Source: a phage. From it: DNA of 64,000 nucleotides. Location of the stretch: the sequence record PQ724392.1. One strand, 5' to 3'. Below are positions 5,455 through 60,975 of this stretch, piece after piece. Below the pieces are notes generated by a model. The model was not told the DNA's origin. It searched no databases and was given only the letters and a program-made list of their open reading frames with translations. Within the stretch, counting starts at the first letter, position 1, and every line of letters begins with the position of its first letter. Made by a program: the position numbers and the translations under genes.

Positions 5455-6300
5455 TTAATCCTTAAGCAATTCAATAACGTTCATCAGTTTCTGACGTTCG
5501 GCTTTCGCCGCGTTATTCAGTCCCGACAGACGGAAAATTTCATCATCTTGCTGCTGGATGGTGATGTTAAGCTCTTCAATCTGTTTAGTGAAAAGCTCAA
5601 TTTGCTCTGAATATTTTTCATTGCTTCGCACTGGAACAGGTTCCATTTTAGGAGCTTGTTCTGAAGGGCTGACTTCAAATTGGTCTTTAATTTGGCATAA
5701 TTTAATACGCTGGACGCCTCCAGTTTTAACATCATAAAAGGTAAGAATACCGTGACATTCCAGTACAGACAATGCCAAACGAAGATGGAATTTCCAATTA
5801 TCATATTGACATCCACTAAAAGAAGAAATACTGTATTCACCTTCTTTTTGACCTTTAATAACATTAAATAGTTTATAATCTAAAGAATTATTGGTTTTAA
5901 AGGTCATTTGTTTATCTTGACCGCTTGCTAAACGAGCGCCTAATGCCAATAAACGGCGCTGGTTTTTCCAAAGGTCTTTAACCACTTCATCAAACGTCAT
6001 GGTGTTAATCGCACGACCATAAAGGTCATAACCTTTATTATAATTTTTAAGTAAAATTTTGGCATTAGCACGAGACAACATACCTGAACGATGAAGAGAT
6101 TTCATGACTCGGTCTTCTAATGTAAGAAGACCAGTGGTCTTTTCAAAGATTTTAGTGAATTCAGCGGAATTAGTACAAACATTGAACTTATTCCACATCA
6201 TATATAGAACATTTAAAACCACATCTTTGGTGCTTGGTATACGACCAAATTTAACAACTTTTTTAACTTCAGAACGAATTTCATTAATTGCTTGCGACAT
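5455..6300 (-). CDS. hypothetical protein with C-terminal coiled coil
   Basis: 281-aa ORF. Confidence 0.6.
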   Translation of the reverse strand: MSQAINEIRSEVKKVVKFGRIPSTKDVVLNVLYMMWNKFNVCTNSAEFTKIFEKTTGLLTLEDRVMKSLHRSGMLSRANAKILLKNYNKGYDLYGRAINTMTFDEVVKDLWKNQRRLLALGARLASGQDKQMTFKTNNSLDYKLFNVIKGQKEGEYSISSFSGCQYDNWKFHLRLALSVLECHGILTFYDVKTGGVQRIKLCQIKDQFEVSPSEQAPKMEPVPVRSNEKYSEQIELFTKQIEELNITIQQQDDEIFRLSGLNNAAKAERQKLMNVIELLKD

Positions 6301-6363
6301 AATAATTTCCTCAATAGATTAATCAAAGGTCAGAACCATTATACCATCCTTGGTATAAAGCGT

Positions 6364-6888
6364 TTATGCGAGAACCGTCTTTAAACGCTCTTCAAACTTC
6401 TGAAGGAGTACCTGGCGCTCTGCTCTTTGTTTGGTATAGGTTTCAATACGCTCTGAAGTGAGATTGTATTGTTCATTAACTGATTCCCTCATGAATTCAG
6501 GAATCTCTTTACATGCTTTGATTTCATTGAACTTATCAAGCACCGCTTGTTGTTCAGCAATCAGACCATCATAATATTGGATATCTGATTTGATGTTTTG
6601 TACATCAGATTCAGTAGGCATATTTTTCTTTGCTCTTGTCGCCTGATACTCAGCATTAGTCTCTCTTGACCAGAACAAAGAGCGGTTTTTATTGGTGTTT
6701 TTATACACATCAACAATACCAACTGAATCAACAGTCACAATCCAGTTCCAGGCGTTTTTATAAGTTTGACCGCCTGATACTGTAATCTCACCCGCACAAG
6801 CAACATCATTAAAGAACTTGCTTTGTGCTTCTGATTTAAAATTACCATTATTGTAATTAATCAGATTAAAGATTGATTTCGCTTCCAT
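6364..6888 (-). CDS. hypothetical protein
   Basis: 174-aa ORF preceded by conserved leader cassette. Confidence 0.55.
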   Translation of the reverse strand: MEAKSIFNLINYNNGNFKSEAQSKFFNDVACAGEITVSGGQTYKNAWNWIVTVDSVGIVDVYKNTNKNRSLFWSRETNAEYQATRAKKNMPTESDVQNIKSDIQYYDGLIAEQQAVLDKFNEIKACKEIPEFMRESVNEQYNLTSERIETYTKQRAERQVLLQKFEERLKTVLA

Positions 6889-33797: not shown

Positions 33798-34393
33798 ACA
33801 TTTCTCATAGATGGATGCATTGACTTAGACCTGATTTCCTGTTGCATTGCTGCATTACTATCAATCTGTGGTCTACCTTCTATTATTATACCATCAATTT
33901 CTACAGCAAAAGACTTAAAGTTAAAAGTTGCTGTTGCATTGATAGCCGGGTCAGAATCTTCTTTATATGAGTACTGAATCTCTGACAGGTCGGACGGCCA
34001 TGCTCCATAGTAATGGATTGACATGACAATTTTGTCCTTGTTGTTATCTAAGATATGAAGCGTGACCGCTTCGGGGCGACCCTTCGGATGCCATGCTTTT
34101 GATTCGTGTGTGATGTAGTTGTTGAGCGAGAGCATCCATTTATAAATGTCAAGCCATGCTCTTAGGTCTTTGTCACACAGAAAGTTAACAATCAGTGGGT
34201 CGAATTCTATTGTACTACCAGGAAGACTGGAGCGATTTATACCTTGTGTTCCCCCAGGAACATCTGTCACAGGGATGTGAACACCAGGGAGGGTAACGTC
34301 TTGAACGTTGAGTTTAAAGGTCTGTGTGAGGTTTGAATCGCTTACCTCTAATATAAAGTTAGTCGTGTTAGTTTGATTATATAAACCTGACAT
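33794..34393 (-). CDS. 3: Tail completion / sheath stabilizer gp3
   Basis: start set to ATG 34393 downstream of gene 2 stop; position in 4-2-3-1 order. Confidence 0.7.
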   Translation of the reverse strand: MSGLYNQTNTTNFILEVSDSNLTQTFKLNVQDVTLPGVHIPVTDVPGGTQGINRSSLPGSTIEFDPLIVNFLCDKDLRAWLDIYKWMLSLNNYITHESKAWHPKGRPEAVTLHILDNNKDKIVMSIHYYGAWPSDLSEIQYSYKEDSDPAINATATFNFKSFAVEIDGIIIEGRPQIDSNAAMQQEIRSKSMHPSMRNV

Positions 34394-34478
34394 AATGCAC
34401 CTTGTTTGCTTTAAAACAATCAGTGTTATAATGGTTCTAGACCTTTGGTCCTTACCAATAACACTGACCGATAATAGA

Positions 34479-35312
34479 TTATGAATTTCTCCATACTTTC
34501 TGGGAAGAGAATCTTTTGCCTTTCGACATAAATTGTTGCAGCGGAAGCATAACAACGTTTGCCCAGTCGCTGGGCTTGATTTCAGTGATAGTACCTTTTA
34601 TATTGCCAGGTATATATGCTTTAATCATCTGGTCAGCCCCTTTAAATCCCTTCACCTTTGACCAATCAATCTTCAGATGAGTCTTGTTTGTAATCGTAGG
34701 AGTATTAGCATATTGCTTAAGAAGTTCCTCAAGGAACTCTTGACGTGCCTTCGGTGGAATATAGTGCAAGTTCAAACCATACATCAAATTGTGCTTACCT
34801 AACCCAAGATAAATGATTAACGGATATTTGTCCCAGTACGGAAGAGTATCCTTATGCTTTGCATCATAGATATAAGCATAAAGTTTGCCTGGTTGAGGTT
34901 TAGCCGTTACGTGGCCGCGAACTGATTTCTTAATTGTCTCTGCGAACCATCTGGCGGATTTGGTGTTGCTTGCAGCGCCTTCGTTAGCAATCTTATCTCT
35001 TATGCTCTTCCTAAAGCTATTCACCATTATCAGCTGGCGTTCAGCCTTCGTAAGTTTACCAGCAGGTTTCTTTTTGAGCTTGGATACTTTATAAGCAGTC
35101 TGAATTCTTGAATGATACCTCGACATGCTTTTGGTAAAGGTCGAATAGTTGATTCCTTTCTCTTCAGCAAACTTTTTCGAGGTCATTCCTTTTTCTTTTG
35201 CTGTATAAAATTCAACCCCTATCTCAACCCATTGTTGTTCTGATTTACTGGGTTTCGGACCTGGTTTATCTGCAGATTCATTGATAAATGTAAAAATACT
35301 CATCCTTTCCAT
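34479..35312 (-). CDS. 2: DNA end protector gp2
   Basis: 277 aa; basic protein between 4 and 3. Confidence 0.8.
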
Positions 35313-54331: not shown

Positions 54332-56638
<2,307 letters not shown>

Positions 56639-56667: not shown

Positions 56668-58647
56668 ATGGCTTTATTATCCCCGGGCATTGAGCTCAAA
56701 GAAACAACGGTACAAAGCACTGTTGTTCGTAACGCGACGGGTCGTGCGGCGCTGGTTGGTAAATTCCAGTGGGGCCCAGCTTTCCAGGTAACTCAAATTA
56801 CAAACGAAGTTGAACTTGTTGATTTGTTTGGTGGTCCGAATAATGAAACAGCAGATTACTTTATGAGTGGGATGAACTTCCTGCAATATGGTAACGACCT
56901 CCGTACTGTACGTGTTGTTAACCGTGACGAAGCTAAAAACGCATCCCCTATTGCTGGCAATATTGAAACTACCATCGTAACTGCTGGTACAAACTATGCT
57001 GTCGGTGATGTTATTCAGGTTAAACACAACCAGACTGTTGTTGAACCGGCTGGCCGTGTGACCAAGGTCGATGTTGATGGTAAAATTCAGGCAATCTTTA
57101 TTCCTACCGATAAGATTATTGCATTTGCCAAAACTATTAACCAGTATCCTAATTTAGGTAGTGCATGGACTGCGGAAGTTACAACCACTTCTTCTGGCGT
57201 ATCTGGTACCATCACCGTTGGGAAAATTGTTACCGATTCTGGAATTCTGTTGACTGAAGCAGAAAATAGTGAAGAAGCAATTACTTCTCTGGAATTCCAG
57301 GCATCATTAGCAAAATATGCAATGCCAGGTGTTGTTGCTCTTTATCCAGGTGAAATCGGTTCGACTCTGGAAGTTGAAATCGTATCTAAAGCTGAATTTG
57401 AAAAAGGCGCAGCTGCAAATCTGAATATTTTCCCGGGCGGCGGAACGCGTGCTTCTGTGGCTCGTGCCGTGTTTAACTATGGCCCTCAGTCTGAAAACCA
57501 ATATGCAATTATCGTTCGCCGCGATGGTGCAATCGTCGAAAACGTTGTTTTGTCTACCAAGCAGGGCGAAAAAGATGTTTACGGTAATAACATTTATCTG
57601 GATGACTACTTTGCAAAAGGTACTTCCAACTACATCTATGCAACATCTCGCAACTGGCCTGTAGGCTTCAGTGGTATCATCAATCTGTCTGGTGGTATTT
57701 CTGCAAACGATAAGATTACCGCTGGTGATTTGATGCAAGGTTGGGACCTGTTTGCTGACCGTGAAGCACTGCATATTAACCTGCTTATCGCTGGTGCAGT
57801 AGCTGGTGAAGGTGATGCAACCGCTTCCACTGTTCAGAAACACGTGGTTTCTATTGCTGACGAACGTCAGGATTGTCTGGCATTTATTTCCCCACCGAAA
57901 GGTCTGTTGGTTAACGTTCCTCTGACCCGTGCAGTGGATAACCTGATTGACTGGCGTACAGGTGCTGGCGCATTTGATACTGATAACATGAATATCAGCA
58001 CGACTTATGCAGCGATTGATGGCAACTATAAATATCAGTATGATAAATATAATGACGTTAACCGTTGGGTTCCTCTGGCAGCTGATATGGCTGGTCTGTG
58101 TGCTCGTACTGATGATGTTTCTCAGCCTTGGATGTCTCCGGCTGGTTATAACCGCGGTCAGATTCTGAACGTTCTGAAATTGGCTGTTGAACCACGTCAG
58201 ACCCAACGTGACCGCATGTATCAAGAAGCTATCAACCCGGTTGTTGGTTTCGCAGGTGGTGATGGTTTTGTTCTGTATGGTGATAAGACTGCAACTAAAG
58301 TTCCATCTCCGATGGACCATATTAACGTTCGTCGTCTTACGAATATGCTGAAGAAAAATATCGGTGATGCATCCAAATATAAACTGTTTGAGCTTAACGA
58401 TAACTTCACTCGTGCATCATTCCGTATGGAAACTTCTCAATACTTGGATGGTATTCGTGCACTTGGTGGCATTTATGAAGGTCGTGTAGTTTGTGATACT
58501 ACTAACAACACCCCGTCGGTCATAGACCGAAATGAGTTTGTTGCTAGCATTTATTTTAAACCTGCGCGCAGCATCAACTACATCACTCTTAATTTCGTAG
58601 CCACTAGCACTGGTGCTGATTTTGATGAGCTGATTGGGCCACAATAA
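56668..58647 (+). CDS. 18: Tail sheath protein gp18
   Basis: 659 aa, same length as T4 gp18. Confidence 0.95.
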   Translation: MALLSPGIELKETTVQSTVVRNATGRAALVGKFQWGPAFQVTQITNEVELVDLFGGPNNETADYFMSGMNFLQYGNDLRTVRVVNRDEAKNASPIAGNIETTIVTAGTNYAVGDVIQVKHNQTVVEPAGRVTKVDVDGKIQAIFIPTDKIIAFAKTINQYPNLGSAWTAEVTTTSSGVSGTITVGKIVTDSGILLTEAENSEEAITSLEFQASLAKYAMPGVVALYPGEIGSTLEVEIVSKAEFEKGAAANLNIFPGGGTRASVARAVFNYGPQSENQYAIIVRRDGAIVENVVLSTKQGEKDVYGNNIYLDDYFAKGTSNYIYATSRNWPVGFSGIINLSGGISANDKITAGDLMQGWDLFADREALHINLLIAGAVAGEGDATASTVQKHVVSIADERQDCLAFISPPKGLLVNVPLTRAVDNLIDWRTGAGAFDTDNMNISTTYAAIDGNYKYQYDKYNDVNRWVPLAADMAGLCARTDDVSQPWMSPAGYNRGQILNVLKLAVEPRQTQRDRMYQEAINPVVGFAGGDGFVLYGDKTATKVPSPMDHINVRRLTNMLKKNIGDASKYKLFELNDNFTRASFRMETSQYLDGIRALGGIYEGRVVCDTTNNTPSVIDRNEFVASIYFKPARSINYITLNFVATSTGADFDELIGPQ

Positions 58648-58704
58648 TTATCATCGCTTAGAATGAATTAATCAGTTAGAAACCGTAGAACCATTATACA
58701 GTGG

Positions 58705-58712
58705 TATAAATA
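58705..58712 (+). promoter_or_regulatory. late promoter TATAAATA inside loop of a 10-bp hairpin
   Basis: exact 8-mer between inverted repeat CCGTAGAACC / GGTTCTACGG. Confidence 0.55.
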
Positions 58713-58791
58713 AAAGCATAATCGGTTCTACGGGCTCCTGTGGTTGATTCTGGGAAGCCATTATCTTGAGATGATGAATCATATTACCTAG

Positions 58792-58799
58792 TATAAATA
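58792..58799 (+). promoter_or_regulatory. late promoter TATAAATA for gene 19
   Basis: exact 8-mer about 52 nt upstream of ATG. Confidence 0.55.
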
Positions 58800-58851
58800 C
58801 ATGCATCAGGGACGCGTTCGCGCGACCTGTGTCTATAAAGAGGATTCCTTA

Positions 58852-59343
58852 ATGGAGTTGACCGATATCACACGCGCTTTCGAATCCGGCGACTTTGCTC
58901 GCCCTAACCTGTTCGAAGTCGAAATCCCATTCCTGGGTAAAAACTTTGCTTTCCATTGTAAAGCAGCCCCGATGCCAGCAGGCATTGTAGAAAAAGTTCC
59001 TGTCGGTTACATGAACCGTAAAATCAACGTTGCGGGCGACCGTACATTTGATGACTGGACTATTACGATTTATAACGACGATGCTCATAAAGTTCGTCAA
59101 GCAATTGTTGATTGGCAAAACCTGTGTCACGGTATGACTAACGAAATCACCGGTGCAGCTCCTGCTGATTATAAGAAAACCGCTACTGTCCGCCAGTTCC
59201 ATCGTGATGGCAAGACCGTTACGAAAGAAGTTGTTATTACCGGCATGTGGCCAACCAACGTTGGGGAAGTCCAGATGGATTGGGACAGTAACAACGAAAT
59301 TGAAACGTTCGAAGCAACGTTCGCAATTGACTGGTGGGAATAA
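58852..59343 (+). CDS. 19: Tail tube protein gp19
   Basis: 163 aa from ATG 58852 (AAGAGGA RBS); matches T4 gp19 length and N-terminus. Confidence 0.9.
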   Translation: MELTDITRAFESGDFARPNLFEVEIPFLGKNFAFHCKAAPMPAGIVEKVPVGYMNRKINVAGDRTFDDWTITIYNDDAHKVRQAIVDWQNLCHGMTNEITGAAPADYKKTATVRQFHRDGKTVTKEVVITGMWPTNVGEVQMDWDSNNEIETFEATFAIDWWE

Positions 59344-59344
59344 G

Positions 59345-59352
59345 TATAAATA
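59345..59352 (+). promoter_or_regulatory. late promoter TATAAATA for gene 20
   Basis: exact 8-mer just after gene 19 stop; UUCG hairpin in leader. Confidence 0.55.
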
Positions 59353-59400
59353 AAGTTATTATGAGGCTTCGGCCTCATTTCCCAAACTTCGGAGACTCTA

Positions 59401-60975
59401 ATGGCAGGTTTTAACACAATACTAAATTTTCTTAAGCCTTGGGCTAAAGAAGATGAACAAGAATATAAGCAACAAGAAAAAAATAATTTAGAGTCAATGA
59501 CCGGGCCGAAGTTTGACGATGGGGCTCGCGAAATTGAGTCACAAGAACAAAACGTCCCGTATAATGCATTGATGCAACAGATGTTCGGGAGTAATGAACC
59601 TGAAGTAAAAAATACCAGGGAATTAATTGACACATACCGCAACTTACTAAATAATTATGAAGTTGATAACGCGGTGCAAGAAATTGTGTCTGATGCTATC
59701 GTTTTTGAAGACGGTAAAGATGTTGTAGCTCTTAACCTTGATGCTACCGAATTTAGTCAGAAAATTAAAGACCGAATCCTCGAAGAATTCACGGAAGTTA
59801 ATAACCTCCTTAATTTCGAGCGCAAAGGTTCTGACCACTTTAAACGTTGGTATGTGGATTCTCGAATTTTCTTCCACAAAATTATCAACCCAGCAAAACT
59901 TAAAGATGGGGTCCAAGAACTTCGTCGCCTTGACCCAAGACAAATCCAGTTCATCCGTGAAATCGTTACACGCATGGAAAATGGTACAAAAATTGTCGAC
60001 GGTTACAGAGAATATTTTGTATACGATACTGGCCATGAAAGTTATTGTGCCGATGGTCGTATATATGAAGCAGGTACTAAAATAAAAATTCCTCGTGCGG
60101 CGATTGTATATGCGCATTCTGGATTACTCGATTGTTGTGGCAAGAATATCATCGGATACTTGCAACGAGCAATTAAACCTGCAAACCAATTAAAACTATT
60201 AGAAGATGCTTTAGTCATTTATCGTATAACTCGTGCACCAGACCGCCGAGTCTTTTATATCGATACCGGGAATATGCCGTCTCGTAAAGCAGCAGCACAT
60301 ATGCAACATATTATGAATACGATGAAAAACCGTGTCGTATATGATGCAACCACGGGTAAAATCAAAAACCAACAGCACAACATGTCTATGACAGAAGACT
60401 ATTGGTTGCAACGCCGTGATGGTAAAGCTGTCACCGAAGTTGACACTCTCCCGGGTGCGCAAGGCATGTCGGATATGGACGATGTTCGCTGGTTTAAGAA
60501 CAACCTATATCAGGCTCTCCGAATTCCATTATCTCGTATCCCTAATGACCAAAACAGCGGCGTTATGTTTGATGCGGGCGCGACAATTACTCGCGATGAA
60601 TTGAATTTCTCTAAATGGATTAGGCAGCTACAGAATAAATTTGAAGAAGTTTTCCTCGACCCGCTTAAAACCAACCTTATCCTGAAAAAAATTATTTCAG
60701 AAGAGGAATGGGAAAAGGAACTAAATAATATTAAAGTTACGTTCAACCGTGATAGCTATTTCACCGAAATGAAAGACGCAGAAATCATGGAACGCAGAAT
60801 CAATATGCTAACGATGGCTGAACCGTTTATCGGTAAATATATTTCGCATCAAACGGCTATGAAGGACTTCCTCCAGATGTCTGATGAAGAAATTAATCAA
60901 GAAGCTAAGCAAATTGAATTGGAGTCCAAAGAGGCTCGTTTCCAAAACCCTGAAGAAGAAGAAGAGGATTTCTAA
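59401..60975 (+). CDS. 20: Portal vertex protein gp20
   Basis: 524 aa, same length as T4 gp20. Confidence 0.9.

Follow-up and report, generated by a model that had tools for sequence, protein, structure and literature searches.

Which functions are served by the 204 nucleotides (nt) that part the tail sheath gene (gene 18) from the tail tube gene (gene 19) in the T4-like phage of sequence record PQ724392.1? The whole stretch analyzed, called the window throughout, comprises 64,000 nt of a phage of the genus Gaprivervirus, and its positions 58548 to 58952 are 100% identical to Escherichia virus TH40 and match ca. 25 other genomes at 94 to 99.8% identity. Gene 18 (659 amino acids, aa; plus strand, 56668 to 58647) ends with a stop codon at 58645 to 58647, and gene 19 (163 aa, plus strand) starts with the ATG at 58852 to 58854, preceded by a Shine-Dalgarno (SD) sequence, GAGGA, at 58840 to 58844. 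The spacer between them (58648 to 58851) is the widest gap of the late gene block, where the remaining gaps measure 8 to 91 nt. An original prediction, made from the letters of the DNA, had singled it out as an unusually wide non-coding interval with two late promoters and a long hairpin, and had proposed that it might set the sheath:tube ratio or be the remnant of a lost insertion. The observation was confirmed and the interpretation partly supported, the spacer being by all indications non-coding and regulatory, and mostly ordinary for T4-like phages.

In our reading, to which we assign a probability of about 0.6, the spacer is a composite transcription and RNA-stability region of the T4 late type that has been enlarged by a promoter-stem-loop cassette, and it constitutes the empty allele of a mobile-gene insertion site. 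All functional statements made here on the spacer are deduced from sequence. Late transcripts reading through from gene 18 would fold a long hairpin, which may act as a 3' barrier, a stabilizer, or a partial stop for the sheath mRNA and would thus do the job of the simple GC hairpin found there in other T4-like phages. The tube-gene mRNA would be re-initiated mainly at a proximal late promoter (P2, predicted start near 58805), with a 5'-proximal UUCG hairpin protecting the message, and a distal late promoter in the loop of the long hairpin (P1) would give a second, longer leader unable to form the big hairpin. At middle times, MotA/AsiA-modified RNA polymerase may fire leftwards from the loop, antisense to gene 18, and the promoter and stem-loop block would behave like a cassette of the PeSL/PmSL kind, marking the edges of gain and loss of a gene called 19.1. 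The extent of the hairpin, the minus-strand promoter of sigma70/MotA type in its loop, and the gene found at this site in relatives all go beyond what had been noticed originally.

The hairpin downstream of the sheath gene

We compared the 18-19 junctions of about 110 T4-like loci, whose spacers measured 18 to 204 nt. In each of the spacers examined, a hairpin came immediately behind the stop codon of gene 18. Coliphage-type relatives, with spacers of ca. 100 to 200 nt, had one or two TATAAATA boxes before gene 19, and the most distant loci, with short spacers, had none. Within each genus the spacers were near-invariant, whereas the flanking coding DNA diverged by 3 to 12%. This comparison, which had been proposed as a check, revealed a conserved hairpin and a site that is an insertion hotspot (see below).

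T4 itself (NC_000866, 100516 to 100631) has an analogous non-coding spacer with a UUCG-type hairpin after gene 18, two exact TATAAATA boxes, and the gene 19 ribosome-binding site (RBS), in the order GGCCTGTTTCGGCAGGCC, TATAAATA, ca. 55 nt, a second hairpin, and the second TATAAATA. Since the T4 spacer has both, a hairpin and two late promoters between genes 18 and 19 are a T4 trait and not peculiar to this phage. The original prediction had asked whether T4 carries an identical spacer of trivial function; the layout is indeed comparable, but length and sequence are not the same, the T4 spacer being 116 instead of 204 nt long, with a short GC stem and no similarity recognizable by eye. The first T4 box lies just past the stem and that of the window inside the loop, the UUCG hairpin precedes the promoters in T4 and forms part of the gene 19 leader in the window, and T4 is without the opposite-strand TATAAT described below. 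The T4 GenBank records have no regulatory features annotated at 18/19, and a literature search for T4 maps of transcription start sites and terminators returned nothing relevant to the regulation of this junction.

RNA folding bore out the hairpin of the window and extended it to about 58648 to 58777 (plus strand, in the sense of the late mRNA), beyond the 10-bp repeat noticed originally. It starts directly after the gene 18 stop, is ca. 130 nt long, and has three tiers. The basal helix joins TTATCATC (58648 to 58655) to GATGATGA (58770 to 58777) and was paired in 9 of the 9 genomes without 19.1, and the middle helix joins GAATTAATCA (58665 to 58674) to TGGTTGATTC (58741 to 58750), two U.G pairs included. 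The inner stem is the perfect 10-bp inverted repeat of CCGTAGAACC (58683 to 58692) and GGTTCTACGG (58724 to 58733), lengthened by AUUAU/AUAAU in the fold, and its 31-nt loop holds the first TATAAATA box, just as had been described. A perfect inverted repeat of at least 10 bp appeared in 16 of 1,000 dinucleotide shuffles of the spacer, and there are 10 such repeats in the 64-kb window. The minimum free energy fold of the whole spacer had a z score of -2.88 (dinucleotide shuffles), and the left 146 nt folded at -40.3 kcal/mol versus -25.0 when shuffled (z about -5, mononucleotide shuffles). Corresponding regions in VR25, SP18, VR7, Dhakavirus, and Marfavirus fold too, with z scores of -3.5 to -7.3.

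The changes seen among relatives largely preserve this structure. Although the 5' arm of the inner stem was invariant across 12 Gaprivervirus genomes, and the inner stem is therefore uninformative on pairing within the genus, a metagenome variant (L108) has a C-to-T change there that turns a C-G into a U.G pair, and in a Dhakavirus locus (L024) an outer-helix C-G likewise becomes U.G. In the middle helix, exchanges between U.G and C-G and between U.G and U-A in SP18, TH54, and TH15 keep the pairing, and VR25 is changed in both arms with the fold retained. VR7-type genomes, which bear 19.1, differ to the left and to the right of the invariant core and form another outer helix from these flanks (TAAATGTA/TACATTTA). 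Across the helices, 92.7% of the cells were paired versus 33 to 44% with slid partners, a control that is generous because the tested structure had been derived from the window itself. The wobble pairs hint at a structure formed by sense-strand RNA. Strand asymmetry was considered as proof of structure at the RNA level and discarded as suggestive only, being mixed over eight lineages: the sense fold was more stable than the antisense fold in four, about equal in three, and less stable in VR7.

The position of the hairpin directly after the stop codon would suit an attenuator or terminator limiting how much transcription passes from gene 18 into gene 19, all the more since other late spacers of the window hold clear intrinsic terminators and Klebsiella phage PhiKpNIH-6 has its homologous inner hairpin, with TTT after it, annotated as a "terminator." In the window, however, the inner stem is followed by GCTCCTGTGG and not by a U-run, and because of this and of its large loop the long hairpin is no classical terminator. 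A consensus scan for sigma70 promoters and terminators found nothing above background on the plus strand and, in the hairpin, just one weak mini-hairpin of 6 pairs (58728 to 58743). Besides, gene 19 has promoters of its own, so its level need not depend on read-through, and we regard attenuation as quite unlikely. For the same reasons the proposed setting of the sheath:tube ratio found no support, given a late promoter 52 nt upstream of gene 19 and a hairpin that lacks a U-run. Sheath and tube are made of about equal numbers of subunits.

RNA initiated at P1 (near 58718) is devoid of the 5' arms and had no unusual structure (z -0.82); therefore, the long hairpin belongs to the transcripts that read through from gene 18. 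A long imperfect duplex of ca. 40 pairs with internal loops, specific to read-through RNA and absent from the unstructured P1-initiated RNA, might also be a site at which RNase III or another endonuclease parts the sheath and tube messages. However, neither Rfam nor known sites provided a match, and RNase III goes unmentioned in the T4 post-transcriptional review searched, which leaves this explanation improbable. The Rfam scan, covering 58000 to 59500 with E values up to 10, gave chance-level matches only (E >1, far below gathering scores).

The long hairpin takes the place of the GC hairpin that follows gene 18 in the T4-like phages examined. In VR26 the stem arms are gone (the 3' arm is deleted) and a GC hairpin, GGGGAtgaaagTCCCC, stands directly after gene 18 (L004, 611 to 640), which looks like a natural exchange of one post-sheath hairpin for another.

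Predicted promoters in the loop and in front of gene 19

In late promoters of the T4 type, an 8-bp box precedes the start by about one helical turn (PMC2988020). The window has 16 TATAAATA boxes versus 5.4 ± 2.2 in shuffles, and the two exact copies reported in the spacer, at 58705 and 58792, are both there. The distal one, P1 (58705 to 58712, plus strand), lies in the hairpin loop at an atypical 139 nt before the gene 19 ATG and is an exact consensus, invariant in the genus and in VR26; its predicted start near 58718 would give transcripts without the 5' arm of the hairpin. The proximal one, P2 (58792 to 58799, plus strand), predicted to serve gene 19 from a start near 58805, is invariant in 12 genomes and lies 52 nt before the ATG, the corresponding distances of the other late genes in the window being 18 to 48 nt.

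P1 shares the loop with a second motif. The minus-strand reading of CATTATAC, GTATAATG, is a perfect sigma70 -10 element, and together with a MotA-like box it makes up a candidate MotA/AsiA-dependent middle promoter at 58693 to 58718 (minus strand), composed of TGCTTTT (58718 to 58712), 13 nt, and TATAAT (58698 to 58693). Its predicted start is near 58686 and its direction antisense into gene 18. The consensus for middle promoters is (a/t)(a/t)(a/t)TGCTTtA located 12 ± 1 bp upstream of TAtaaT (PMC2988021); the loop site, TTA-TGCTTTT with a spacer of 13 nt, agrees with it in the -10 element and in the box, with 6 of the 7 positions of the MotA core. The pattern TGCTT-N13-15-TATAAT was found five times in the window, the loop site among them, versus 0.22 expected. 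MotA and AsiA are annotated in VR7, a phage of the same genus; their region falls outside the window. The polarity is that of the early and middle genes of the window (minus-strand early block, 1 to 35750), and no open reading frame (ORF) follows.

Conservation across genera draws attention to the same motif. The spacers of Gaprivervirus, Dhakavirus (JS98/VR5 type), and Marfavirus (F48/Marfa type) are otherwise unalignable by eye, and the sole 8-mers common to them are CATTATAC and TATAAATA(A); any shared 8-mer was obtained in 48 of 5,000 shuffles. In all three, the apical loop of a hairpin with two tiers holds CATTATAC, 31 to 44 nt after the gene 18 stop, and the stems around it are unrelated in sequence from genus to genus. 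At the same distance from the -10 element Dhakavirus has CGCTGTA and Marfavirus TGCTAAA, so that a GCT core lies 13 nt away in the three genera (read from the sequences). Within the loop, the variable positions are all outside the -10 element, the MotA box, and TATAAATA. The block from CC-ATTATAC to AAAAGCATAA is exact in VR26 although the stem arms are lost, and thus hairpin and promoter block are separable units.

That minus-strand match may nonetheless be an inactive by-product of AT-rich promoter sequence, the spacer then having, as in T4, just a post-sheath hairpin and two late promoters for the tube gene. This alternative, which we hold possible at well below even odds, draws on T4, where a hairpin and two TATAAATA boxes occur without a minus-strand TATAAT, and on four further loci (L040, L041, L044, and L045) that also place TATAAATA in or beside the post-18 hairpin; it also accords with the missing minus-strand gene downstream and with an estimated 0.3 chance matches in the late region. 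It has more difficulty with the loops of Dhakavirus and Marfavirus, which keep CATTATAC and the GCT core 13 nt from the -10 element and do not have TATAAATA, and with the intact block of VR26. Because late promoters need no flanking sequence (PMC2988020), the conservation of the loop block is better explained by the minus-strand reading. Of the claim that the first TATAAATA is a late promoter, the exact box stands, and a middle promoter on the minus strand accounts no less well for the conserved block around it.

Several points weigh against the composite-region reading and against its antisense component. Every promoter and hairpin function in it is a prediction; covariation within the genus is thin, with an inner stem that never varies; and the long hairpin, with its 31-nt loop and no U-run, departs from a classical terminator. 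No gene lies downstream of the minus-strand promoter, whose transcript would be antisense to gene 18, and none of the 58 listed T4 middle promoters maps to 18/19 (PMC2988021). By chance alone, the late half of the window should contain ca. 0.3 combinations of a perfect TATAAT and a 6/7 MotA box (our estimate), which is not very rare, and one of the three occurrences of the loop sequence TATAATGGTTCT in the window, that at 34426 (plus strand), may be a coincidence with a terminator U-run. A scan of public viral contigs for the loop block retrieved three Gaprivervirus genomes only, i.e., no widespread repeat at that stringency. On balance, we place the activity of the minus-strand promoter somewhat short of even odds, and a dedicated function is less probable than activity. 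It is unlikely that the loop is a working MotA/AsiA-dependent middle promoter, kept in at least three genera, that transcribes antisense into the sheath gene from inside a sense RNA hairpin, yielding an R-loop primer like that of ori(34) or a dedicated "anti-late" RNA through which expression of the sheath would be delayed or tuned, with the same motif perhaps serving as a landmark for the HNH gene 19.1. If active, the promoter would help to account, as a defined and conserved source, for the transcription of both strands that has long been known from T4 late regions, and its layout would be new, with a hairpin of the opposite-sense RNA carrying the promoter in its loop.

The three sites of TATAATGGTTCT in the window are at 6332 (minus strand), 34426 (plus strand), and 58687 (minus strand), the last being the loop. 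At the first, the identical sequence occupies a normal promoter position: a likely middle promoter, CGCTTTA, 12 nt, and TGgTATAATGGTTCT, is located 36 nt upstream of the minus-strand gene 5455 to 6300. That region (6300 to 6400, minus strand) also has a stem, TTATACCA/TGGTATAA, over the -10 element and a second hairpin after it, resembling PeSL/PmSL, and has 13 nt in common with the 18-19 element. Around the second site (34385 to 34485), two minus-strand genes are parted by an intergenic hairpin (z -4.67; perfect stem of 10 bp), and its plus strand reads TGCTTTA, 13 nt, TATAATGGTTCTA, like a promoter of the MotA type pointing antisense. As the U-run of the minus-strand terminator, read on the other strand, accounts for its "MotA box," this site may be coincidental.

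The right third of the spacer (P2, UUCG hairpin, SD, and ATG) is an ordinary late module, invariant in 12 genomes apart from loop swaps and a few one-sided changes. The GC palindrome that had been pointed out before the gene 19 RBS is a UUCG-loop hairpin, GG-a-CGCG-UUCG-CGCG-a-CC (58810 to 58827, plus strand), which would begin 5 nt into the predicted P2 transcript. In it, 98.6% of cells were paired, and TH54, TH15, and TH57 show swaps between UUCG and UACG in the loop. Hairpins near the 5' end shield Escherichia coli and T4 messages from 5'-end-dependent decay, and we infer a similar protective role for this one. The leaders as wholes were not significantly structured (z -0.8 for P1 and -0.5 for P2 transcripts). 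The idea that the P1 block is a tandem copy of the P2 block was rejected, the similarity outside TATAAATA being reached in 764 and 978 of 2,000 shuffles.

The spacer between gp19 and gp20 (59344 to 59400; gene 20 starts at 59401) has the same module as gene 19, with TATAAATA at 59345 followed by the leader hairpin AUGAGGC-UUCG-GCCUCAU, and in those of gp8-gp9 and wac-gp13 a GC stem closed by a UUCG loop and then a U-run precede TATAAATA. UUCG tetraloops are thus recurrent in the late spacers of the window. Exact TATAAATA boxes were also found on the coding strand inside gene 17 (56132 to 56139) and gene 18 (58027 to 58034); T4 is annotated with internal starts in gene 17.

Neither strand of the spacer seems to encode a protein, as had been maintained. 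A minus-strand ORF of 44 aa (58672 to 58806) is listed as a hypothetical protein in some GenBank records (P8, UPEC07, and others), and this ORF or the 6-codon ATGATGAATCATATTACCTAG might be taken for a small protein gene. The 44-aa ORF has no Pfam or PHROG match and is shortened in VR25 (20 aa) and in VR7 and DCP80 (12 aa), its start is gone in TH57, and no SD is visible in the sequence; a small protein gene here is extremely improbable. At the other end, an ATG at 58801 in frame with gene 19 creates a spurious 180-aa ORF that has no SD and begins upstream of the predicted P2 start. The N-terminus of gp19, MELTDITRAF, aligns with that of T4 gp19; several GenBank relatives call the protein "tail fibers protein." For annotation, the spacer is best kept non-coding, both the hypothetical protein of 44 aa and a gp19 of 180 aa being artifacts.

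The gene 19.1 insertion site

The junction of genes 18 and 19 is an insertion hotspot, with a presence/absence polymorphism of a putatively HNH-like gene at a fixed intergenic site. Type-A 19.1 (201 to 216 aa) is inserted between the gene 18 stop and the hairpin, at a point equivalent to 58647/58648, in VR7, RZ, DK-13, TH57, and DCP80 and at the same place in Dhakavirus; in the window this point is empty. In VR26, a leader and a type-B relative of 227 aa, immediately before gene 19, replace the segment equivalent to 58741 to 58851, and Dhakavirus has analogous replacements. Both types recur in Dhakavirus and other lineages, and Shewanella phage Thanatos-2 and Pectobacterium phage POP12 have a 19.1 homologue exactly between genes 18 and 19. 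The sequence of 19.1 gave no significant match in Pfam, NCBIfam, or PDB, and in PHROGs it matched phrog_5104 (unknown function) along with weak endonuclease matches only.

Type-A copies carry a leader with a sigma70-like promoter and a stem-loop. The leader (L005, 1823 to 1889, for VR7; also L019 and L132) has a stem, GCGCGTAT/ATACGCGC, in VR7 and Dhakavirus, with TATAAATA inside it in VR7, and it would provide plus-strand transcription of "early type" within the late module. In VR26, the late promoter of gene 19 lies within the 3' end of 19.1; a downstream late promoter inside the 3' end has likewise been described for seg and mob genes (PMC2988022).

Is the spacer, then, the debris of an insert, as the original prediction had allowed? 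The presence of 19.1 at the same site in sister genomes and the resemblance, loose and by eye, of the first ca. 30 nt of the spacer (including ATTATC) to the 3' end of the VR7-type cassette would agree with a functionless scar left by deletion of 19.1. The invariant hairpin core and the P2 block are, however, identical in genomes with and without 19.1, which makes the window an empty allele and not insert debris; within-genus spacers are also near-invariant against the 3 to 12% divergence of the flanking coding DNA, and compensating changes preserve the structure. We judge a functionless scar very unlikely, and the remnant proposal was dropped in favor of an empty allele.

The conserved virion module of T4-like phages thus has a small plastic spot in which a promoter-stem-loop block and the HNH-like 19.1 come and go across genera. 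Since an insert of 0.6 to 0.7 kb is tolerated there in nature, the 18/19 junction is a candidate payload site for phage engineering.

Two of the genomes deviate in other ways. In DCP80 (L003, PQ671644, 141 kb), unrelated minus-strand genes and a DNA primase replace gene 19 after 19.1 and the spacer, and the record, which contains runs of N, is probably rearranged or misassembled. In Thanatos-2 (L104, 1 to 1980; MT457553), the large-terminase region consists of two ORFs with Terminase_6N matches, the first of which also matches the Tn7 TnsA-like N domain and may reflect an insertion in, or a split of, the terminase gene.

Relationship to known elements

PeSL and PmSL are short intergenic composites of an early or middle promoter and a stem-loop, some with a Mot box, found at the edges of ORF gain, loss, or replacement in T4-like phages (Arbiol 2010, PMC2839356; Comeau 2014, PMC4122927). 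The element of the window resembles them in combining a promoter of sigma70/Mot-box type with a stem-loop, in being conserved over tens of bases between genes, and in lying at indel edges, with type-A 19.1 on its left and type B on its right in two genera. However, the published elements end in the SD and start codon of the downstream gene, and no minus-strand gene follows the one described here. They also cluster in hyperplastic early regions, whereas this one is inside the conserved tail/head (virion) module, and their stem-loop is beside or inside the promoter, whereas in the window the promoter lies entirely between the stem arms.

The T4 hairpins with an internal late promoter at e, soc, I-TevI, segB, and mobE (PMC2988022, PMC3014915) are similar in that only read-through transcripts form the structure. 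In the window, read-through RNA had z scores of -2.9 to -5 versus -0.8 for P1 RNA. The known hairpins of the e/soc/I-TevI type hide the RBS of the next gene, whereas the SD and ATG of gene 19 (58840 to 58854) are outside 58648 to 58777, with the RBS more than 100 nt away.

The T4 promoter P34i has a role at the replication origin ori(34). It shares with the loop promoter the MotA type, early/middle polarity, a setting in a late structural region, and the lack of an obvious protein (PMC2988021), but 18/19 has no sign of origin activity or of an unwinding element, and T4 is without such a promoter there. As for 19.1, it recalls the free-standing HNH homing endonuclease genes mobA-E (PMC2988022) in being intergenic, patchy, putatively HNH-like, and always at the same locus, and differs from them as a putative nuclease outside the curated families that is absent from the window.

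The element was therefore filed as akin to these known kinds and a member of none. What appears mildly novel in it is a single feature, a conserved motif of an antisense middle promoter, as judged from its sequence, in the loop of a sense hairpin beside the site of a mobile HNH-like gene.

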